Below, one piece after another: positions 63 to 28,970 of a stretch of DNA of 64,000 nucleotides. Positions within the stretch are counted from its first letter, which is position 1, and every line of letters begins with the position of its first letter. Source of the DNA: Antedon mediterranea. Its lineage: Eukaryota; Animalia; Echinodermata. The position numbers and the translations under genes are program-made. The stretch covers positions 33,490,304 to 33,554,303 of the forward strand of contig NC_092671.1 in NCBI RefSeq assembly GCF_964355755.1, given 5' to 3'. The notes under the pieces are model-generated. The model worked only from the letters and a program-made list of their open reading frames with translations. It was not told where the DNA came from and searched no databases.

Positions 63-470
63 TAGTACAGTATGACTTATATATAATTTACACAGTGCTA
101 CGCAACACAATTGACTTACATATACACAATGTAATTACATTACATGTAATATGTTTATATGTCATAGCACTGTACAGAGCATCCGAAAGTCTAAAACAAC
201 CAAATTGTCCCATCATTAAGAATTGGGAGAACTGATTTGCGTTGATTTTTACCCATTTCTCTGTTGTCAATCGGTAAAAAACGTCAGTGATTATTCGAAC
301 GTACGTGTGATCTGAATATCCGCCATGTGAATCTGGTTCACTCAACTCAATTCGCCACAATTTAACGTCGACAGGAAAAAAGACAGGGATCGGCGTAATA
401 CAGATCATACACATGCAAGGTAGGTCCTAAATGTACACTAAATGATTTAAACATAGAAAAAAACACTTAC

Positions 471-3400
471 AGTATTTTCAATGATGTCAAGTTAGAGAAG
501 ACATTGGCTGAAAAATTACTAATGTCATTGTACTTCAAATTTCTATAAAATAATGAATACACATTCAAAGTTTCAAAGCCGTGTATGTTTTCAAATCTTT
601 AGGACGGCTTTTTCTAATTCTCACATCTTCACCGTTTATAAATTAAATAATTATTATTTTTAACATGTCACTGGGAGGTTTAAAACTTCTCAATGCATTT
701 CATTATAATAAAGTACAAACAAACCCACAAACAAGCATAATAGAGCGAGTCTATAACTGTTCTACTCTGTGTCCAAAGTTGGAGCACTACCTAGATTTTT
801 TTCGTACATAAGTTGGAGACTACTTCTTAAATATTATAACTAAATATAACCCTCTAAATATTCTTTCTCACTACAAAGTAAAAACAAAGTTGCTCATGGG
901 ATTCAAACTCCATACATCGATATGTAAAGTCTATTGTCTAATCCACTAGACTACACAGACGGCTCAACAGAAACCGTTTGAATTAGCGAATTGTATTGTT
1001 ACCTTATGAATATGACTAATGAATGTTCATGTTTATTTTGAGACGTTTCAACGTATGATCAAAAAGAGATATCGATTCCCGCATTCGTTAATGTGCAGTT
1101 TTGTTTACAAAGCATGGATCTTACTGAGTGCAGCACTCGGTGAACCGAATTGCGGAACTCGAGTACAGGAAATAATCTAGCATCAAGTGCTTGTAAAATA
1201 AAGTACTATAACTATTTAGAAAAGTTCACATTCATTTTGATTCGCTTTAACTGTATTCTGTGTCTTTTATGTGTAAACTGACTTTGGGGTTGGGTTAACC
1301 GGCTCAGCTACAGCGATGGACGACATTCCGCCTGCAGACATGATTACAGGAAAATGAGGTGTAGATTCAAGGACTCAAATGTTATTGTAGTTAAAAAATG
1401 ATTCTCTATTGTAGAAGACACTTAGGAATAGTGATGCATCCATTCACCATATCCGATGAACTAGTCGAAAATAACACATACAATGTCATGGAAGCGCTTC
1501 CTAGAGTTATCTAGCTGATTGGTCTTACGATTATTGAGGAAATTAACACATTGTGTATGCCGTCATACAATTCTGTGTAATTAATACGTCTTCATCGACA
1601 TATTTAAAGCTATTGAAATTATTTAAGCAGTAAAATTCGTTAGCGATCACTTACATAAATATTTTATGTATATCTTTATATTATTTTTTATATATCTGTA
1701 TATTTATTTTGATTCTTCTAGATTCACTAAAACCTAATAGCATCCTCGGTGTTTTACTTAAACCATTTAAATTTTGAAAGCCTAGCTTTACTAACTCAGA
1801 ATCATTTCAAACACGCCTATCTGTCGCGTCCTGGAGGACTATGTAGAGGCGGCGAATCACTGTCGTCGCTTATGTCATAGAAGTAACCGTCACGCTCTGT
1901 TAATATTGCCGTCCTCTTCGTTTATCGTCCCGATGCAAACGTTCCCTATTTTCAAAGAGCGACAGTCAAGTGATTTCAACCGATCAAGTTCTCGTGTTTA
2001 CATAGGCTAAATATAAAATATGAGAAAACTTCACTTACAATAATTCCAATGATTTCAAGTCAGAAAACATATTGGCTGGTAATGAACTTATATAGTTACG
2101 ACTTAAATCCCTTCAAATTAAAACAAAAATAAGTTGAAATTATACAGTAAGTTAAATATAAAGCTTTAGGGGAAATGTTCACCTGGATCTTTACAATACA
2201 TTGGTAAAATGTCTTTTTTATGATCCAATATTATAATATATTTGAATGAAACCGTTAAACTTGCTTTTGCAGGTTCCTCGACGCAAGAATAAGTTTAACA
2301 GTTTTTTTTGTAACGCTTCCGTACACATTTCAAATCCAATTTGTTTAGCAATTTCCAAAGGTTTTATCTTTAGATGTTTTTGTTGAAATATTCTAAGCAG
2401 TAAAATTCGTTTACGATCACTTACATAATTGTTTTATGTATATCCTAGTTTGTGCAGGCTGTGAATTTAGGTTTTATCTTTATATGTTTTTATAGTTATC
2501 TTTAAAGATGTATTGTCCCTTGAAACACAAAAAATGAAAAAAAAAATATTCTAAATTTAAATTGGCCATATCAAAGTAATATTAAAGTTATTCACTTTAA
2601 GTCGAAAATTCGAGCCAAAAACAACAATTTTACGTAATTAACAGGTAAATTAATTAGATTACATTTCATCTGGGAAATCGTCGCAAGCGAAAGTAAACAA
2701 AGATTTCAAACCATGAGTACGCATTATGCATGATGCTAATTAGGTTTGTTTACAACTCGTCACGGTTGAGAAGGTGTTTTCACACAGATCGCGAGGAAGT
2801 TTTATGATTATGCATACAGAGTATATTGTTTTTTTCTCGAGCCAGTTTTTGTTAAAAATAAATAACTAAATTGTGTAACATTAAAATATTCTCAAAAACA
2901 TTCATCTGGTTTCAAATGATTTATGTTATACATGTTACAGAATTTCACGTTCAAAACATATTAATGAAACGCATTAAGAGAGCACTGTCTACGTGTTGAT
3001 ACCCTGACTGGAGCTTTGAAAGAGTTAAAAACAAGAGAGAAACCAAAAGGCGTTGAAAGATCATGAGCAGAGTAAAGAATAAGAGAAATAAAAAATCAGT
3101 ATTGGTAGGCCTATACGTCATGTTGCAGGATTGACAGATGTCCATACGTCACTCGCGTGAACAATAGTCCATGGGATTTAGACTTTTAACTCACACAAAT
3201 TGCAAGAAAAGGTTTTTTGGATGAAATGTGTTCTTTAGACCCTACTGAACACATTTATCAACGTTAGGACGTTTTTCGACAACGGGAAGTAGCCTAATTT
3301 GCATAATTCAAAATGGCCGCCATTTTCTATAATTACACTATATCTTGAAAACCGCTAGTCACAGATAATTAATTATGGTGTCAAAATGTTTAAAATATAT

Positions 3401-6400
3401 GTTTTTATATTTACTTTAATGAAACTTTTTGTCCAAAAATAAATGGAAGTGCTATTTTTGACATTTTGACCTTTGACCTGGATTTATCATATCTCCTTAA
3501 CCACTAATCGCAAAGACACAAAATAGGGCTCAAATTGTTCAGAAGCTATTATTTCATATTTATTATAATGACATGTTTTTACACAAAATGGTCGATTCTA
3601 CAGCTGTTGACCTTTGAACTTTTAATTAAATAAAATTCCATAACTTTGAAAATATTGGTCTTATGAAATTATTTTTTGTTTCAAATTGTACAGACCATGT
3701 AAGTTTCTATCTAGTCTAAAGAAACATTTTGCACAAGAATGACCGATAGTACGGTTATTGACCTTTGAACTATATTTGCACAAGATTTGAACCCAGTATC
3801 ACCTTTCTATCTATATACATCCTACATTAGGTCATGTGATTTGGCCCTCTATAGTTTAAAAAAGTTTTAGTGATGACTTTGCAATTCCCAAACGTTTCCA
3901 AGGAATGTGGAAAAAAGTTTAGAAAAAGTTTTGATCAACTTCTTTCTTCAACTTTGCAACTTTTTATAGTATGGTAAGTGCATTTAAACAGTTTTTATAG
4001 TTTATTATTGAACTTTTCCATTTAAAAAACATATTAGGGTATGTATATATATATTGATATAAGTATATCTAATATTGAATTCGAACTTAGGCCTAGGTCT
4101 TGAAGGTTACTCAGGAGAAAATACTCCACATGCTTAAATGTTAAATCGAGGAGACGCTTGGCCCAGGCCTAGCTATTTAGACAATTAATAACTATTATGT
4201 ATAGGCCTAAAATTGTTGAAATTATTGTAAAAAGTAAATAAGCCAATACATAATAAATATTTTAAAATTACTTATTGTGGTTATGTATACTAATACGCAT
4301 GATAAAGTAGTTCCAATTAGTAGGCCTACATGGTAACCTATTATACCTATAATACTTATAATTAATAGTTAGGTACTGCTGCATAACTTTTGATACAGTT
4401 TTGATTTGATTAATTGTAAACAGATGGAACATCACTCAAGAAAGCAATTGGTAGGCCTATGGCATGTACTGTGGCTTTCGGATTAATATTTGATCAAAGA
4501 TATTAATACGCCATCGTAAGTTGCACAATAAACATATTGTTACGCCATAATATATCTAGTCCGAATTTGTACTTTCATAAATCAAAAACCTTTTGACTAT
4601 TCATAACTTCTATTTAGGTTTCAAATGGATCCTTCTACTTTTAACGAAGATGTGTGTGTATTTTGTAAAAGCCCAATTCACCGTGATTATGAAAATACAG
4701 TTAAACTGACTCAAGTGGGTGTTGACACTATCAACAGAGCAAACAAAGAAAGAAAAACATCATTTAATGTTCATATGCAACAAGTAGTTCATGCAAAATG
4801 TAGACGTGACCATTGCAACAAGAAAAGCATTGAAATAGCTAAAAAAAGAAAGGCGACAGAAAATTGTCCTCCTCCATCACTCAGATCTAAGAGGCCAGCT
4901 TTTGACTTTCCTTCTCAGTGTTTGTTTTGTTGTACGAATGTGCTTCAAAAAAACAATTGTCTCTGTCTAGATGTTTGTAATGTAGTAACCTTTGAATATC
5001 AGGAAAGTGTATTAAATGCGTGTAAAAAGAGATCTGATGAATGGGGTAATAATGTTAGGGGTAGAATTGAATGTGTTCATGATTTGCCAGCTGCTAAGGC
5101 CAAGTACCACAAGACATGTGATACTAATTTTAGAACCTCTCGTAAAATGCCATTAAAATTTGATAGTGGTAATAGAGAGAGAGCGGATTTCCGTGGCAGA
5201 TACTACACGAGAACAAGCGTTGAGGTCTATTGTAACCAATTTAATAGAAGAAGAAGAGGAATTAGTAACATTGTACGATCTCCAATCAAGAATGACAAAG
5301 ATGGGAATTGAACCATACAGTATTTCGTATATGAAGAAGATGGTCCAAGAAGAATTTGCCGATTGCTTGATGATAAGCAATATTAAGTGTAAGAATGTCA
5401 TTACCGTTATACAGAGTGTTTCTCGAATTCTTGATAAATTCTATAAAGAGAAAATCAATGATGAAGACAAAAAGGAAAGCATATTATTAACGGCAGCTGC
5501 ACTAATCAAGTGTGACATCAAGTCAATAGTTGAAAACCATAAAGTCTATCCAGAAATTGTAGGAATTGGTGACGTCAACAAAAATCTGCAGTATCTACCA
5601 GAGTCACTAAGAATGTTCCTTAATGAAACCTTTGGAAAAAACAAAATGGAAAACAACTTAAAGGTTTCAGCTATTGGCCAATGCATCATGCAGCAAGTTA
5701 GACCAAGAGGTATAATTGCTCCAATGCAGTTTGCTTTGGCGATGCATGTCCATTGGAAATATGGATCCAGCGATCTTGTAGATGACTTGAGTTGCAGAGG
5801 ATTTTGTATGTCATATGACGAAGTTAAGATGTTTAAAGCGTGCGCCTCATACCAAAACAAAGACCAGTTAGAATGTATAGGTGATCGATTTTGCCACTTT
5901 ATTGCCGATAATGTTGACCACAACTTACTTACAATAAACGGTAAGGAATCTTACCATGGGATGGGCATTATGGCTTCTATCACTCCACCTCTGCCATTTA
6001 ATCGATGTGTGGTAAGGAATTCTCAATTTATGAAGGTTAAACCAAAAAGCGTTGATATTGTGAAATATAGAAGACTGGGGAAGATTGGTGAACAGTTAAT
6101 ATACAAAACATTACAAACGATAGACACTGACGACGAAAGAAAGAATCTTGACATACTTTGGAAAGTAGCATATCCAATTAAAGTTAATAGACCAGGATGG
6201 TCAGGCTATATGGAACTTGCAACAACACCACGTGAAAATCCAGGCAAAGCATCATTCCATTTTTTACCTATGGTGGATTTGGATCCAACAAACATGTCAT
6301 GTGTTTATACGACATTAACATATGTAAATGATCTATGCACCAAGAACAAAATTACTCCTGTGGTTACTTTTGATCAGCCATTGTGGCTAAAGGCTAGACA

Positions 6401-9400
6401 CATCATTAGTAAGGAAGACTGCCTTGGAAACATCTTTCTTATACTTGGCCCTTTCCATACTGCAATGAGTTTTCTCGGTAGTATTGGAAATTGCATGAAA
6501 GGAAGTGGTTTACGCGCTCTTCTTGAGATTGCATATGGTGTCAACACAGTCAGTCACATGTTAGCAGGAAAAGCTTATGAAAGGGCTATACGTGGCCATT
6601 TACTGGTAGATGCTGCCTTGAACGCATGTGTGCTGAAAAAGGCTGAAGAAGATGAGAGTACCCATATTGCTGTTCATAAAGTTCTTCAACTTTATGATGA
6701 AGTAATTGAGTGTTCTGAATCTGTATTGGATGTTAATGATCCTGATCTAATGATAGTTATTGATAACATCAAGAACATCAAGCAGAAAATACAGAAGATG
6801 CCTACTGGAAAACTCTGGATACAGTATATGGAGATGGTGGACATCATCAGGTCAGCAATTAGAGCAAGTCGAACTAGCCAACCAATGATATATTTTAAAG
6901 CACTACAGGACATGATACCATTCTTTGCTGCATCCGGGCATAACAACTATGCAAAATCGTCACACTTATTCTTGCAAGATATCGCGGAACTTAAACACTC
7001 AAATCATCAATTATACAATCGACTTGTTGAAAATGGCAATTTCTTTATAAGGCGGTCAGATAAATACTGGGCTGGTTTGGCGTCCGACCTCATCATTGAG
7101 CAAGTGCTTATGAAATCCATAAAATCAGCAGGAGGTCTCACTCATGGACGAGGGATGGATGAAAGTCAGCGTACCCGATGGTTACAATCTATGCCAATAT
7201 TCGCACAGATATCACTTGAGATAAACAATTCTCAAAGAACCAGCACCAACAAAGATCTTGGAATGTCCAGAAGGAAACAAGATACAGAGGATACAAATAA
7301 GATCCATGAATACTTGCAAGATTACAGCCCGTTTGACGAAAACGAATATCTTTATAACATTGTTACAGGTATAACAGCACCACAGTCAAATGCTCATCAT
7401 GCCAAAGACATCGGTAATGTAATTCTCAAGAAGATGGTTGGTAACGCTTCATCAACGTTTGTTTTCAGAAAGAAGGACCAGATAAAGACCATGGGCCAAA
7501 AGATTGTTGCTGACGGCATTGAAATAGAAGTTGATCCTCAGGCTTTATTCCAGCGTTTACTTGTAATAGCTAACAATACAAACATAAACATAGAAGAACT
7601 CATGTGTCATGAGCTGTCTGTGTATCCACCTTCTTTATTCACCAGTAGTGGCATTCCACGGAATGCTGATAAGCCGCAATTGTTAGATGCAATCTCCAAG
7701 TACCAATCTTCAGCTAAAGACGTAATAGCGGATGATGCAGAATGTACAGTGTTTGATGGCGGATCATTAATTAGGCGTATACAATGGGAAAAGGGAGAAA
7801 CATATGGCGAGATTGCATTAAAATATGTCAACAAAGTTAAGAAGTACCCTTACTCAATTGTTGTGTTTGACGGATATGAGAACGAAGTTTCCACAAAAGA
7901 ATCAACTCATAAGAAACGGTCAAAAGGTATTACTATATCACCAGATGTTCAAGTAAAACCACACCATCACTTCAAGTTAGAAAAGCAGTCCTTTTTGGCC
8001 AACAAAAAAAACAAGCAAGCCTTCATTAATCTACTTTCAGAAACACTGAACAACTCTAATATTCTTTCAAAACACGCAAAAGGTGATGCTGATCTGTTGA
8101 TTGTTAAAGAAGCAGTAAAAATGGCAATGACACATGTCACGCATGTCATCGCTGAGGACACAGATATACTTGTACTCCTCTGTTGTCACATGAAGGCTAA
8201 CAGCAAAGCAATACATATGATCTCAGAAAAGCACAACAATAAGCATCCGAATTGGAACATTTCAGAACTGTCAGCCACACTTGGCAAAGATATGTGCAGA
8301 TGCCTACCGTTCCTGCATGCCCTATGCGGATGTGACACAACATCAAGTCTTTACTCAATTGGCAAGGGAGTGGTACTAAAGAAGAAATCCATTTGTGATT
8401 ATGCTGTGCCTTTCATTTCAAAATCATCTACACATGCAGAAATACAGGAGGCGGGTGAAAAGGCTATTATATTCATGTACGCCAGTGACAAATACAGTCA
8501 ATCACTAGATGAACTTCGGATCAGAAAATTTAAATCCAAAGTTGTTAAGAGTCTCAAAGGTATTGATGTAAAAAAACTTCCTCCAACAAGCAATGCTGCA
8601 AAATACCACTCATATCGTGTTTATTATCAGACACAAATCTGGTTAGATAATAATCATCTAAATCCAACAGACTGGGGATGGAAGATAGTGAAGGGTCAAC
8701 TATTACCAAAAATGATGGATCAGAAACCAGCACCTGAAACTTTAATGTCCATTATTAGGTGTAGGTGTAAAGGATTTTGCGACACACAGCGATGCTCTTG
8801 CAAGAAGAATGGTTTATTCTGTACGGATTTCTGTGAGGAATGTCAGGATGGAAACTGCATCAATGTTGAGATTTTTTATGAGGATGAGTCTCGAATGTAG
8901 ATTACCTGTTCCATTTTTAAATCTATATAATCATAATCATATTGATGGCAGATAATTATTAAATATCATCTGTTCATATATCGTTTTTAATCTATATACA
9001 GTAATCATAATCCATCATACTGATGGCAGATAATTATACAAATCTTATCTGTTCATATATCGTTTTTTTAATCTATATAATCATAGTCCATCATATTGAT
9101 GGCAGGTAATTATCAAATATCTTATCTGTTTATATATCATTTTTTAATCTATATACAGTAATCATAATCCATCATATTGATGGCAGATAATTATACAAAA
9201 TCTTATCTGTTCATGTATAGTTTTTTTAATCTATATAATCATAATCCATCATATTGATGGCAGGTAATTATCAAATATCTTATCTGTTTATATATCATTT
9301 TTTAATCTATATACAGTAATCATAATCCATCATATTGATGGCAGATAATTATACAAAATCTTATCTGTTCATGTATAGTTTTTTTAATCTATATAATCAT

Positions 9401-12400
9401 AATCCATCATATTGATGGCAGGTAATTATCAAATATCTTATCTGTTTAGATATCATTTTTTAATCTATATACAGTAATCATAATCCATCATATTGATGGC
9501 AGATAATTTTAAACTATAGAGGGCCAAATCACATGACCTAATGTAGGATGTATATAGATAGAAAGGTGATACTGGGTTCAAATCTTGTGCAAATATAGTT
9601 CAAAGGTCAATAACCGTACTATCGGTCATTCTTGTGCAAAATGTTTCTTTAGACTAGATAGAAACTTACATGGTCTGTACAATTTGAAACAAAAAATAAT
9701 TTCATAAGACCAATATTTTCAAAGTTATGGAATTTTATTTAATTAAAAGTTCAAAGGTCAACAGCTGTAGAATCGACCATTTTGTGTAAAAACATGTCAT
9801 TATAATAAATATGAAATAATAGCTTCTGAACAATTTGAGCCCTATTTTGTGTCTTTGCGATTAGTGGTTAAGGAGATATGATAAATCCAGGTCAAAGGTC
9901 AAAATGTCAAAAATAGCACTTCCATTTATTTTTGGACAAAAAGTTTCATTAAAGTAAATATAAAAACATATATTTTAAACATTTTGACACCATAATTAAT
10001 TATCTGTGACTAGCGGTTTTCAAGATATAGTGTAATTATAGAAAATGGCGGCCATTTTGAATTATGCAAATTAGGCTACTTCCCGTTGTCGAAAAACGTC
10101 CTAACGTTGATAAATGTGTTCAGTAGGGTCTAAAGAACACATTTCATCCAAAAAACCTTTTCTTGCAATTTGTGTGAGAAAAGGGTCATTTTTTAGCTAA
10201 ATCCCATGGACTACAAGGCTTTCGATGCAAGTAACCGAAACTTATCAAAAATAGTAAGTCTATTTTTGTTGTGGTTTACCAAATAGAAAAAAAATACTAA
10301 CATTAAAATGTCATATTCAACAAAAATATGTTAACAAATCATTTTTAGGGGGACAATACATCTTTACCATTCGGTCCGAAAAACAGAGCAAAGGTTATGA
10401 CGTCATAACAGTAAACAATGGTCGATCAAAGTTTTTTTTTCAATTTTAGTTGTAAAATTAACTGAAACATTTATGTATAATATTGTATGTGTAGATTGTC
10501 AATTTACTTTCAGTTTTCTAGATTCATTAAAAAGGGCATCCCTAGCCGCCTTTTTAATGGTTTTAATTAGGTGTTTTTAGTTTTTGAAATTTGCGAACCT
10601 AAGACTTGGTCTAGGTAAACGCAGAAACTTTTCAAACACGCCCACAAAGCCCGCGTCTACATGGTCTGCGGACTACGTTACAGTATCTATCTCGCTGGGT
10701 ATTATTATCTTAAAGATGATAATAGAAAGTTTATGTGGAAAATACAACGATTTATGAATTTCTTTAAAGATTTTCCAACAATATTTCACACAAATGTGTT
10801 CCATAAATCTCAACCAACTTTGATGACATTTTAATGTTGTTGTTAATTGTTAAATCTTAAAACGATGATAACAATTACAAGGGAGGATAAAACAAAATGA
10901 ATGAATGTACAGTAGACTTACAATCTCACTTATATGCAGCACTAAACAACAATTTAAAAGTATATAAACGTGATACACTTACAGTTTTTTCAATGATGTA
11001 AAACCTTCAAATAGATTCACTGTCAATTCACGAAACGCGTACTGCAATTCCCTTTTAAGTAAACACAACTTATAAGAATTTTGCATTTGAATATGTTTTT
11101 TAGCATTGGATGTTTCTATGGCAATTATGAAAATATTGAACGATATTATTTTAATGCATACCGTAATAACAAAGCAGATCTAACACTGATTTACGATAAA
11201 TTTATTAAAAAAATAATTCGACACTAAAACTATTTCATTTAATCTAAACCCTGCGAAGATATGACCACTTTGGATTAAATTTAAATAGTTTTTTTTTAAA
11301 ACATATTTAATGAGGGTGATCCATCCAGCAATTGCTAATCATTAGGTACCCTCAGAGGTTCACAAGACAAACATATACACACAAGATGCTCTACATAAAC
11401 AAAGTCTTATTACAAGTCTTTGGAGTGGATTTGTAATTTGGTTCTTAGAAAAAATCCTGACATGTGATGGGACTTCAACCCAGGACCCTTGGAGTGGTAG
11501 CCAAGCATCATAACACCAAGCCACAACTCCACTCCAGTTATATTGAGGTCAGTGGTCAAACAGGATTTTAGAAATGTGACAACATGAGTTTTTACAACCA
11601 GCTTCAAATATTCATAATACAATGTTTACATTGATCACGATGACAGGTGGGAATTACTGATTTTAATACTCCAGATAGAGAAAGAGAATAGAATAATACT
11701 AATATCGATCCATAAGATGAAGCTTTAATAAGTTGACACCGAATTAATACCCATGTTTACTATTATAAATGCCAATATATATTTTCAATAATATTTGATA
11801 CTGTATATTTTTCTATTTATTTTAGCGCCCTCTATAGATAAAACATTACCGATATTTCATTTTTCCAAGTTAAGATGGTCACAGTTCCTTTCGGCCGCCA
11901 GTCATGTTCATATTGGCCTTTAGTTATGGCGCGCAAATAACTTAAAATAATTGTATATATATGATACTTATTTACAGAATAAGCTGACCAAAAACGCTAC
12001 CTGCACCCAGTCTAGGGCTAGGCGTATATGATTTTGTTTGTCATTATCGTGCGATTTTCTTCATAAATATATAAAAAAATGGAGGCTGGCCAAAATACAG
12101 GAGGAGGGAGGTTATGCTATGCAACACGGATTTTTTTTTTCGGATGACAAAACTATCTTGGCAGACCTCATTTTGTTGAAAAAAAAAATACTGAAGGACA
12201 TGCCTATTGAGGAAAAGAAGCCCCTCTCCCGCTTTGTTTGTAATGCCGCCAGGCTTCTTTTCAAGATAAAGTATTTATTACTACTATCAAACTAAAGGTT
12301 CCGATTCCAAATCTCGGTTGAAAGTGAAATAATGGCTAGTAAAAATAGAGAAAACGGTCAGACCACCTTTTTTAACGAAAATATTCTTTATTTTTTTAAC

Positions 12401-15400
12401 GAAACTTTTAAGGTGTATTAAAGTACATTATTTAATTAATTTTTAAATTTAAATCTATATTTTGTTCTACCAGAAACAAGTTAAAAATTGAAATATTGGT
12501 AAATAATCCTTCGTCAAAACGCGTCAACAATAGCGCGCCCGATAGTTGACGCGAACTGTCTATTCGGCAGTGTTTTTATTAAATAAATTTCATAAAACGA
12601 ACAATTCAATATCCAAATGGCATTTTTTGTTTTGCTTTTTTTAAATCATGAAAACACTTTCGGTTGTCCGGGCCAAGATTTTTGCTTTCGCACATAAGTT
12701 GGGGATCCCTCATGAATAGTAACAAAATAAACATGAATATTCATTAAATCTATAAGATATGGCGTAAGAATTGTACTAACTACAATTCTCTATTGCAAAC
12801 GCTTTCTATCGAGCCATATGTGTAGCCACGTGGATTAGACAATGAACTCTACATGTCGATATATGTGGTTCGAATCCGATGGCGAAATTCTTTTTACTTT
12901 ATAGATATATGAGATAGAGATTATTTAGAGGGTTAGCTTTAGTTATATTTAGGAAGTAGTTCCACATTAGGGATCCCCAACTTATATACGAAAAAAAAAT
13001 CGCGTCCGGCCTTAGTATAGATTAATATGACCGGCATATAAAAAGTTATCTAAATCCCAATGTACCTCATGGAAAACATTGTAGTTGCCGGGGAAACCGC
13101 GGATTGTTCATTCTTCTGAAATATTCTTTGAGTATACTTACAAGACTTCTATTGGCTTATATTCATTGCACGTAGATAGATGTGTGGCCGGTATATCATA
13201 TATACTTCCCGATGAACAATCAATGTAGGTTGCGTTATTAGAATGTTTACATACGCAATTGTCTGGACATACACATCCTTCTGAAAAACAATAACAATAA
13301 ATAATGTGGAAACCACCCCCTAGCGAGTTGGCGAAGCGCAAGTTAACTTTGATACACTCAATTCCCAGAAGTTCAAACATTTTATGCGTCGGTAATTCGT
13401 TTTGGTCTACTACCACGCGTTTCGGATCTAACATCAAAACGTTCATAGACAACCACTTCGATGACATCCAAAGAGGATGATCTGAAATAATAAATATCTA
13501 ATTTATTGATATATAGTATTTCGATATTTTGTGTGATTGGTTGTTGAATGGGAACCATTAAAGATGTATTGTCCACTGAAAAAATAATTTGTTGAATATG
13601 CCATTTTAATGTCACATAATAAATATTCACTTCACTTCACAAAATTGGACCGGAAAATAAACTATTTACCTGAAAAAAACTGTAATTTAAAGCGAAAGAT
13701 AGTCAAATTTGCTGTCAGCCAATGTGTTTTTGGTTGAATTTAACCGTTTATTTTGTCATTTATTAAGTGAAAACATTATTTTTTTCGGGGTTTTCTCTAC
13801 GAAAGTGATTAACTTTGTTAAAACTACAAAATGGCCCATTTTCGAAGTCTGATAGAAAAATGAGTGGAGCAGTCCAGCTAAACACAACCAGATATCACCA
13901 GAGCAACAAGTCTTACTACCAAAGAGCAGCTTGCTTGGAATAACTTAACAATATATTAAGAATTTCAAAGCTTTTAGTAATTCTTTCAGAACTTAGTAAA
14001 ATTGAAGTTAAATGTTACATTGCTCGCCGTCGTATTCTATAATCGAATGCGTTTCGATCACAATAATAACGAAATTAAAGCATTAATCCGTGTCTCTTGT
14101 GTATCGTAGGCCTATATTCAGCGGTCAACTATGAGGCGCTACCGATTTTTTTTTTTGTTACAGTCACATACAATTATTTTTGTTAAGTCACTTCAATTAA
14201 TTGCGTGAATTCTTTCATTTTTCAGTTTGATTATCTTAATCATATGTGTCCTAAGTATATTAATAAATGTTTTTGGCCGCTATGAAACATATTAAAACTG
14301 TTATTATGTTTCGTAGCGGCCAAAAACATGCTTAGGACACATACGATTAACATAAAAAATAACACTATAATTAAATAGGTGATGTGTCTTGAATAATATT
14401 GCTTCCTGCTATTTGTATAACAAAATAAAGTAATACAATCAGCATTAAAATTGTATTTTTGTAATTCTTTTTTAAGTGGGTCGCCGCTTACTAGAGGTAA
14501 TTTACCATTTGTTAGTTAAAAAGTGGCGCGAATGCACTAATGGGATAGGGAGAACAAAGGGGCATTTGAATGTATGGCCGTCGTTTAATTACGACAATCC
14601 TTACTTAGTTTAACATGAAAGCTAATACTGTACATAATCCGGGTGTGCATATAACCGTTAACCATTTCCAAAACTTCGTTATAATTGAATGCAAACTATT
14701 TTCTGTACGGTGATTCACCATTTACAAATAAAATAACAATTTCACTTAGTACGGATAGCGCTTCATTATGACGCATGATAGCTGAATTATTAGGCCTAGA
14801 GACGAATGGTTAGCGTTCACAACAACATACACTCTTATTGAAACTAAAAATATTTTCTAACAAATCGGTCAGAAAATAATCAATAATTGGGTTGGGAACA
14901 CAATTCTATTTTGAGAACGGAGAAGGCGGTTTTCGACCTCTTTGATCAAGCACCTTCTCTGTTAACACGATCACATTAAGTTGAAGACAATTTTCCCTCC
15001 CTCCGTCCAATATTTAGACACTTATGGTAATAGGGCTATTTTTCTCAGAGGATCTATATTGTGCTTACTTAGAATTGGAAAATTATTGCTATATAACTTA
15101 CATTTGCTTATGACTTTTATGTGCAGTTTTACATGGGCGAATGTTCATTTTATAATTAAACTATTTAAGCCAGAACTTATGCTGTATGCGTCGTTATTTA
15201 TTATTCTATGAGTTTGTTAATTGCCGCAGTCTCCGAGTAGCAAAAGCGTTTTTAATACATTACACTTTTTCAGTAACTTATGGGTTATTAGTTTACAATA
15301 CGTCGTTACACATGGCGATGGACGCGTTTTGTTGGTCGTTGAACGCGTTGGTTTAATTTCTTTCCTTTGGTAAATTATAGTGTCGAAAAATGGCGAATAA

Positions 15401-26656: not shown

Positions 26657-28970
26657 CAATAGGGTTGGTGAAAACTGTTCATGATAGGTTACTTTTCTGT
26701 CCATAATAGGGACTAGAGGGCGCTCTTGTTTGTCCATAATAGGTAACTTTCATAATTGGCTGTCCAAAATAGGTGACTCTTTGTCCACAATAGGAGATTT
26801 TATTGGAGTAGTGCACCATCCATTGTGTTGTCCATAATAGGTGATTTTGTTGGCGTACTTGTACGTTCGTAGTTTATTTCGCGAGTAGACAGTTCGGACA
26901 GTTAGTAGGTTGGCTGTATAGTAGAACCAGAGCTATTGTTACTGTATGTTATTATGTCATCTATTTAAATCTCAATTGTTTTCCCATATTTTCTGCATGT
27001 ATTACAGATTGTGTACAGTGTATCTTCTGATCAATGTTATAGTACAGTAGCATGGACATTTCTATTAACTAGGGTAAGTAACAGATAGGCCCAACCTACA
27101 ATTCAAGAAAAATACTTTACATATAACCCACTAGACCTACATCTTTTAGGAGATTTTTCAATATGTTTGCAAAAGTAATCTCGAAAAGAAGGATACAATT
27201 TAGTCAAACATTTTCAGAGAGACAAACTGAATATTGTCATTACCATAGTAGAAAAACTTACTGACAGTACATGAAAATTAATTTTTAACATTCTGATTTG
27301 AAATGTTCTATTTATTTGAATTGCTAAGAAATTAAAAGTAGATATTTCTTTTTTATTTTCATTCATTATAAACATTACAATCACTGTACAAAGAATAGAT
27401 AAATCCACTAACAAATTCATGCAGAAAATACATAAAATTAAATTAAATGTTATATCAAAGCATTCATTCAATAAAGCCTTTATCTTTAAAACATTTAATA
27501 TCAGTTTTCATATAGTGAGTATGGTAATAATTGACTCTGACAACTGGTATAAACTTAAATTTAGTAAAAAAATCCTACATATCTTTTTTTAAATGCAATA
27601 AAATATTTAAACATAACTGTGTCCCACCATACAACATGAACAGTTGTCTCAGCATTAACAAGATTGAAGTTACTTGCATTATACAAAACTTAAACATTAT
27701 TATAGTATTTAAATATTTCCTTTTTTATTATAGGCATACAGATGTTTGATATTCTGCTCATATACAGTATGCTGCTGAAATGGAAAAGTACATCACTTCA
27801 ACATAATAACTTTAATCATATCATCGATCAATAATTATAGTAATAAACATAATAATTATGGTGTATTTTATTTATCTTTGCTATTTTTAAAATTGTAGTT
27901 TAACCATGTTTTTACACTTTGAAAATTAATATAATTCAGTATTTTATAATGTGATTTAGATTTTGAATAAACTGTTCTGAATACATGAATACAGAACAAA
28001 GGTGTTGATTGTACACTGCGTATATGTAAACTTGATTTATTGTCTATTTCTTATTATTAAACATTAAATTTGATTCATTTAATTAAACAACAATATAATA
28101 AATGGATGAGAAGTGCTGCTGTTGATCCACTTCAGACTGGGATGATTTGTCATTTGACTTGAGCTATGTGGATCCAGGATTTTGAAATAGGGAAGGACCT
28201 AAAATGGTGAAATGAAGTGCTGAACTGTGATGTCTTTTTCAATATTAAATTTTTATTATTACTGTTAACAAAACAAAATAAAGTCCAAAGAAAAAAAAAA
28301 TACAACTATTACATTGAAATACCAATGCATTAAAAATAACAGTTTACATTTTCATTATCTTAAAAAAATAAAACTTCTTCAATATTAGAGTATTATTATG
28401 GGGTATTTTTTATTTTTGTAAAAGAACAGGTGGGTTGGGTGATTTATTTAAACTTGCAATAGTATGGTAAGTTGCGCAATGTCTGTCCGTACTAACATTC
28501 AAAACCTAAAATTAAGTTCAAATTAAATTATTTGTTGTTGAATAAATCTCACATTTCATTATTAGTGGACAATAACAAATGGACTAGGCTAGTAGTACTA
28601 GTAGGCCTATAGAGGTAGCCTAACTAACAGGACTAGCCTAGGCCTAGGCTAGAGAGACTTAAATAAATATAGTTATACTAATTAGGCCTCCTAGGTAGCC
28701 TCGAAGTCTGAACAGAAAACAAATTAGTACTCGCGAAATAAACTACGTACGTACGAGTACGCCAAAAAAATCACCTATTATGGACAACACAATGGATGGC
28801 GCACTACTCCAATAAAATCTCCTATTGTGGACAAAAAGTCACTATTTTGGACAGCCAATTATGAAAGTTACCTAATATGGACAAACAACAGCGCCCTCTA
28901 GTCCCTATTATGGACAAAAAGTAAGCTATTATGGACACAAAAGTATGGACAGATTTCACCAACCCCGCTC
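26657..28970. mobile_element. Non-autonomous TIR DNA transposon (about 230-bp TIRs, 8-bp TSD; hAT- or P-like)
   Basis: TSD caaatgtc at 26649-26656 and 28971-28978; TIRs about 26657-26888 and 28728-28970 with repeated TGTCCATAATAGG; empty site gcaaatgtctatg at 38339; no transposase ORF. Confidence 0.8.

Follow-up and report, generated by a model that had tools for sequence, protein, structure and literature searches.

A stretch of 64,000 nucleotides from the echinoderm Antedon mediterranea (assembly GCF_964355755.1, contig NC_092671.1, positions 33,490,304 to 33,554,303 of the forward strand), referred to as the window, contains an AcademX transposon at positions 3165–10213. Flank comparison identified a target-site duplication CAA, with its left copy at 3162–3164 and its right copy at 10214–10216 (both + strand). 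Each end of the element opens with the same 17 bp, TAGTCCATGGGATTTAG, of which about 16 bp are conserved in relatives; this terminal block lies at 3165–3181 (+ strand) and at 10213–10197 (− strand). The terminal block is followed at the left end by a spacer of 8 bp, ACTTTTAA (3182–3189, + strand), and at the right end by a spacer of 18 bp (10196–10179, − strand) with an A-tract at bases 20–25 (10194–10189). Inward of these spacers, the terminal inverted repeats (TIRs) match over 672 bp with no mismatches (3190–3861 on the + strand versus 10178–9507 on the − strand). The difference in spacer length places an inner box, AATTGCAA, which is a candidate transposase-binding site, at base 34 of the left or short end (3198–3205, + strand) and at base 44 of the right or long end (10163–10170, − strand). 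This layout agrees with the first-pass annotation, which had reported a shared 17-bp terminus, about 670 bp of matching inner TIR and a 10-bp difference between an 8-bp and an unrelated 18-bp spacer. The 17-mer had no further occurrence in the window with up to two mismatches allowed. The TIR also has an internal period of about 150 bp between 3381 and 3771, with units near 3381, 3530 and 3681 that are about 72 % alike and repeat TGACCTTTGA. A palindrome, AAAATGGCCGCCATTTT, which we take to be YY1-like, lies at 3310–3326 and is mirrored at 10052–10068; of 36 ends compared, 8 had a similar motif at a distance of 113–115 bp from their box.

The interior of the element consists of two overlapping reading frames on the + strand, at 4607–5311 and 5157–8900, with no further long frame within the element. 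The first frame is homologous, over about 4634–5164, to the N-terminus of intact relatives, which carries two Cys/His motifs. The main frame encodes a winged helix, a DDE core with a helical insertion and invariant D, D, H and E residues, an EXO1/FEN1/XPG-type nuclease and a C-terminal Cys cluster. Following its stop codon, a tandem array with a 158-bp period and subunits of about 80 bp adjoins the right TIR (8914–9508, + strand). Homologues (213 matches at E<=1e-10, with corals and molluscs as the named sources among the 120 listed) were mostly single proteins of about 1,450–1,500 residues that align across both window frames and break between 5164 and 5199, the site of a conserved G-R-P linker motif (+ strand). 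Judged from this alignment, the window copy is either frameshifted or mis-assembled at 5164–5199; because its own frame break falls at the linker, the copy was probably either mobilised in trans or intact at insertion and damaged later.

An AlphaFold2 model of the protein (predicted local distance difference test score, pLDDT, 85.6) was compared with 48,161 representative chains. Residues 181–631 of the model matched transposases and integrases, indicating an RNase H-like DDE core, and D192, D347 and E589 were invariant in 109 sequences. The modelled C-terminal domain was of the EXO1/FEN1/XPG type (Z up to 15.2, 254 aligned residues, root-mean-square deviation (rmsd) 3.8), and the window protein gave an EXO1 profile match (E=0.0012). 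Homologues gave weak DUF6589 matches, and a protein atlas search returned eukaryotic clusters without names only. The element was assigned to AcademX because it combines a 3-bp duplication with a DDE core and an EXO1/FEN1/XPG-type nuclease fused to the transposase, as opposed to a transposase paired with a helicase, and holds no other long frame, so that the Academ label of the first-pass annotation holds. The portion of PMC10045372 consulted gives a 3- or 4-bp target duplication as a criterion for AcademX. The window element resembles AcademX (Academ-1) in its TAG...CTA ends, 3-bp duplication, long TIRs and DDE transposase fused to a 5'-nuclease domain, and nothing in this membership sets it apart. 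Its TIRs, which start with TAG as do all 49 distinct ends examined, resemble curated Academ consensi in the supplement of PMC10294476, where the bivalve consensi inspected share both terminus and inner box with it. The element is a young, apparently frameshifted AcademX transposon.

To place the two ends of the window element among those of its relatives, 65 metagenome loci and 10 genome-collection loci from a profile search were combined with three further stretches to give 78 loci. A pattern search in four metagenome-assembled genomes (MAGs) gave 57 matches compared with 42 in a reversed control and yielded three extra loci only. Both ends were available for 26 elements, comprising 25 of the 78 loci and the window; since some loci repeat one family, statistics were applied to 18 representative families with about 38–44 % identity to the window protein. 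Loci L070–L079 are Academ elements in records labelled as bacterial MAGs; their ends and relatives suggest that these are likely animal host contigs binned into MAGs. Viral contigs contained four chance-level matches to the 17-mer and no transposase relative.

Self-alignment of the relatives produced recurrent 10-bp gaps. The terminal motif and the box were picked after inspection of the ends, with the distance between them left free. In a simple scan for AATTGC(A/T)A inward of the terminal motif, the box started at base 34/35 in 32 ends, at 43/44 in 25 and elsewhere in five, such that 57 of 62 fell into one of two classes. Dinucleotide shuffles (20 replicates) placed 0.35 of 5.85 matches per replicate at positions 34, 35, 43 and 44. 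A rescan with a weight matrix, trained on 36 of the ends, located AATTGCAA at 34/35 in 37 ends, at 43/44 in 32 and elsewhere in four (69 of 73 scored ends). Most elements carried one end of each class, with 24 of the 26 two-ended elements pairing a short with a long end at an offset of 10 bp in 20 and 9 bp in four. The same pairing was present in 12 of 13 elements on contigs of at least 20 kb. The offset between short and long ends is therefore not a private mutation and is conserved across this AcademX clade. The reading of the first-pass annotation would have fallen with symmetric ends in other copies or with random spacer differences; the relatives are instead asymmetric, with differences of nearly constant size.

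Pairwise comparison of the window ends alone leaves room for a private deletion in this copy, as the 8-bp spacer can be aligned to the 18-bp spacer with a 10-bp gap and two small shifts, and the gene carries another lesion. This explanation is refuted by the box positions, since both window ends sit exactly on family positions 34 and 44, and by the pairing of short with long ends in 24 of the 26 elements. A further contig, from run X3, has a joint that ends at 3189 with a side of 25 letters, as expected from the short start. The two spacers are fairly called unrelated because the relatives show distinct short-type and long-type spacer profiles.

Independent indications of two end classes were found in published bivalve Academ consensi, where first ends were counted by eye for 70 of the 100 entries labelled Academ in supplementary file 24 of PMC10294476. 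Among the first 42 entries, ten contained the box AATTGCAA, five at bases 33–35 and five at 44–45. One consensus, marissinica_91, has the same TIR as _34 and _58 except that 11 bp are missing after base 17. A second bivalve clade in the same entries has a different box, at 40–41 in nine entries and at 51 in three. These data bear on the proposal that the offset goes back to a neutral indel in the ancestor of a single clade and has been frozen there since, while assembly collapse hides symmetric elements. One profile search supplied all loci and most contigs are short, as this proposal would have it. However, on long contigs 12 of 13 elements paired a short with a long end, spacer letters diverge while spacer lengths hold, and the second published clade has classes 10–11 bp apart around another inner box. 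A frozen indel is consequently very improbable.

Comparisons within and between families indicate how the ends evolve. The two ends of an element were more alike than the ends of other families, both for the terminal 16 bp (0.89 versus 0.78, p=6e-4, n=18) and inside, in the stretch that begins 10 bp ahead of the box (0.875 versus 0.62, p=8e-6, n=18). On this sequence evidence, homogenisation works on both sides of the spacer and spares the offset. In 11 elements the short end lay 5' of the gene and in 13 it lay 3', with a constant orientation within families. Between supported sisters, the arrangement of short and long ends relative to the gene was reversed (L049/L051, support 1.0; L053/L039, 0.994; L009/L032, 0.997; L020/L033–L034, 1.0; the tree omits L082, which had insufficient coverage). 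The asymmetry proposed by the first-pass annotation thus stood, while its framing as a left and a right end did not extend to a fixed side of the gene. Because of this flipping, we rejected the idea that one of the end types serves as a promoter. Homogenised ends and flips between sisters together imply frequent exchange between TIRs, and no symmetric element with a target duplication was present among the 26 two-ended elements. A second box, 54–55 bp inward of the first, shifts along with it (27 of 36 ends), and each of the 25 distinct long ends had only A or T at bases 22–25. From these patterns, the offset looks to have been selected.

Selection on helical phase only would require that either spacing presents the box on the same helical face, with any pair of ends being active and the combination of short and long merely inherited. 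The restriction of box positions to 34/35 and 43/44 is what phase predicts, and one locus, L046, has two long ends flanking a gene fragment. Two-sided homogenisation and frequent interior flips should, under this explanation, give rise to symmetric elements, and the lack of any with a target duplication makes phase alone quite unlikely.

Target-site preference was assessed for the ends of loci L005–L074 and for window positions 3165 and 10213. The base beside the terminus was G or C at 0 of 25 ends located 5' of the gene compared with 14 of 35 ends located 3' (p=1.4e-4, one of six tests), and was not linked to short versus long ends (7 of 32 versus 7 of 28). On these counts, target choice seems to be oriented by the gene. 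This independence of polarity from end type would suit a second alternative, in which unlike ends are selected for a purpose other than pairing, such as ordered cleavage, limited activity or the interruption of a long, perfect inverted repeat that would otherwise be subject to repair or silencing by the host. Some TIRs are indeed of great length and free of mismatches (672 bp in the window), and the ends of the P element are cut asynchronously according to the sections of PMC7776569 consulted. Breaking a palindrome requires no fixed 10-bp offset, however, and families whose inner TIRs are only 78–85 % identical retain the same offset. We therefore consider selection of this kind unlikely.

The explanation that we favour, and consider probable, is that AcademX transposase needs one short and one long end to form a working cut-and-paste complex; we infer that the two ends are functionally non-equivalent. 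In the proposed mechanism, the catalytic core would grip the terminal 16–17 bp while the N-terminal modules (two Cys/His motifs, the basic G-R-P linker and the winged helix) grip the inner block. The box of the long end is displaced inward by one helical turn; the inner block would be held on the same helix face at both ends, and a tilt of the linked N-terminal modules would allow only unlike ends to fit. The conserved A/T tract may be where the extra turn of the long end bends. Whenever recombination between TIRs made both ends alike, the resulting elements would then be poorly mobile and would be lost. This scheme assumes the same logic as that described for RAG1 and proposed for the ends of the P element.

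Several observations weigh against an obligatory pairing of unlike ends. Two elements depart from it: L033 has an offset of 5 bp (40/35), and L046 has an offset of 1 bp between two long ends (43/44). The long end of L033 is without bases that are found in its sister L034, and this element is decayed. In L046, the two long ends (99–3525) surround the 3' half of the gene; there is no target duplication, half of the gene is gone and the left TIR adjoins the middle of the gene. Either a rearrangement or an error of assembly would account for this locus. An exact 3-bp target duplication was present in 6 of the 26 pairs, leaving many pairs unproven as single insertions; the flanks of multicopy elements on short contigs may be chimeric. 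The count of unlike ends in 19 of 20 (p=4e-5) overstates independence because the families share ancestry. The surveyed loci come from one clade, and short-read assembly may under-sample symmetric elements. A third bivalve clade in the entries inspected (PMC10294476) showed a single class in nine of nine first ends, which may mean that the rule is not universal or that this set of entries is uniformly oriented. A model in which short and long ends alone set polarity does not explain the gene-linked polarity of target choice. Finally, the nearest homologues of the window protein carry G-R-K or G-R-R instead of G-R-P.

The first-pass annotation had likened the ends to the 12/23 rule of RAG recombination signals. 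The one-turn asymmetry bears this out, while the nearest structural analogue of the Academ transposase, according to the predicted model, is the P element and not RAG. The best transposase match was the P-element transposase 6p5a (Z 11.0, 363 aligned residues, rmsd 6.1, model residues 101–628), with weaker matches to Hermes (Z 7.5) and RAG1 (Z 6.3, 340 aligned residues, rmsd 5.6). The P element also has unequally spaced inner sites, and its helix-turn-helix, RNase H and insertion architecture is matched by the Academ model, as a prediction only. In the text of PMC7776569 consulted, the transposase site of the P element is 9 bp away from the TIR at one end and 21 bp at the other, pairing by induced asymmetry is proposed, and cleavage occurs with a 17-nt stagger. 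The P element has an 8-bp duplication, a THAP domain, a GTP cofactor and a 12-bp offset fixed to its 5' and 3' ends, whereas Academ has a 3-bp duplication, no Pfam THAP match, a fused nuclease and a 10-bp offset in free orientation. Academ shares with RAG, RAGL-A and some Transibs a terminal block, a spacer of fixed length, an A/T-rich inner box and an asymmetry of about one turn. In contrast to these systems, Academ has no CAC heptamer (its ends start with TAG), no RAG2 and no 5-bp duplication; its box is about 14 bp further from the end, a winged helix follows G-R-P, and the RAG1 fold match is weak.

Partial texts of two further sources describe comparable arrangements. The RAG1 nonamer-binding domain contacts its A/T-rich nonamer through a GRPR/K motif, and it pivots to enforce the 12/23 rule (10.1101/2023.08.20.553239). 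The TIRs of PflRAGL-A differ by 10 bp, a one-turn asymmetry also present in RAG signals and some Transibs (PMC8355894); this review names the Transibs concerned as the only known transposons with such asymmetry. In intact Academ relatives, the N-terminus has two Cys/His motifs, the basic G-R-P linker and a winged helix, in this order; among the loci surveyed, L049, L011 and L055 have frames without a break. G-R-P was present in 63 of 75 full-length homologues and forms a low-confidence coil in the model, and the adjoining winged helix gave structural matches with Z of 6–7. The N-terminal model had no Foldseek match at E<=0.001; neither a RAG nonamer-binding domain nor THAP was among the matches listed, which excludes neither. 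Pfam THAP had no match at E<=0.05 in four full-length proteins and none at E<=1 in the window frames.

By analogy, a tentative and somewhat doubtful extension is that Academ represents a third lineage, beside P and RAG/Transib, with a one-turn pairing rule, in which the G-R-P hook and winged helix would read AATTGCAA as the nonamer-binding domain reads the nonamer and the fused EXO1-type 5'-nuclease could make P-like overhangs of 16–17 nt. At 16–17 bp, the terminal block is as long as the 17-nt stagger with which the P element is cut. Remnants resembling excision footprints were not found among 21 loose matches in 572,601 bases, which is too little sequence to decide.

The age and copy number of the element in its host were examined by aligning read contigs from four runs of one sample to the left end. 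In three runs, contigs with a 4-letter insertion behind 3148 ended their match at 3164 and then continued unlike the element. These look like the empty allele, which would make the insertion heterozygous and recent. The depth of unique inner sequence was about that of one flank haplotype, and diverged TIR-like contigs were about 100x deeper, although contig depth is no direct measure of copy number. These very deep contigs are about 85–90 % like the TIR (window 3165–3790), which suggests that a related family of non-autonomous elements is abundant in this host.

Other repeats are present in the window. A second element of 2.2 kb at 26694–28920 has no long frame, and its TIRs of about 195 bp consist of GTCCATAATAGG-like repeats. 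Two inverted copies of an older repeat (822–995 and 12781–12960), 77 % alike, flank the Academ element at a distance. The region 36055–63899 contains retroelement remnants (an integrase zinc-binding domain, two reverse transcriptases and a SCAN domain) and a near-identical direct duplication 13–14 kb apart with 73-bp hairpins.

In the literature searched (Academ with TIR, 12/23, RAG1/Transib and asymmetry), no description of a short/long rule for Academ and no mechanism of Academ transposition were found; the lineage-defining Kojima 2020 and the Repbase Reports lay outside this search and may mention the rule. Academ is a large group of transposons in molluscs, corals and other animals. The 34/44 rule names a likely binding site and predicts which pairs of ends are functional. 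For annotation, it means that Academ consensi with 'perfect' TIRs may conceal two end types. The rule also bears on the origin of the 12/23 rule in antibody-gene assembly: the strict adherence of a P-like lineage to a one-turn offset suggests that this solution is older or was reached repeatedly. If Academ is indeed a third lineage, the pairing of unlike ends would be an old shared trait of insertion-domain DDE transposases and no speciality of RAG.

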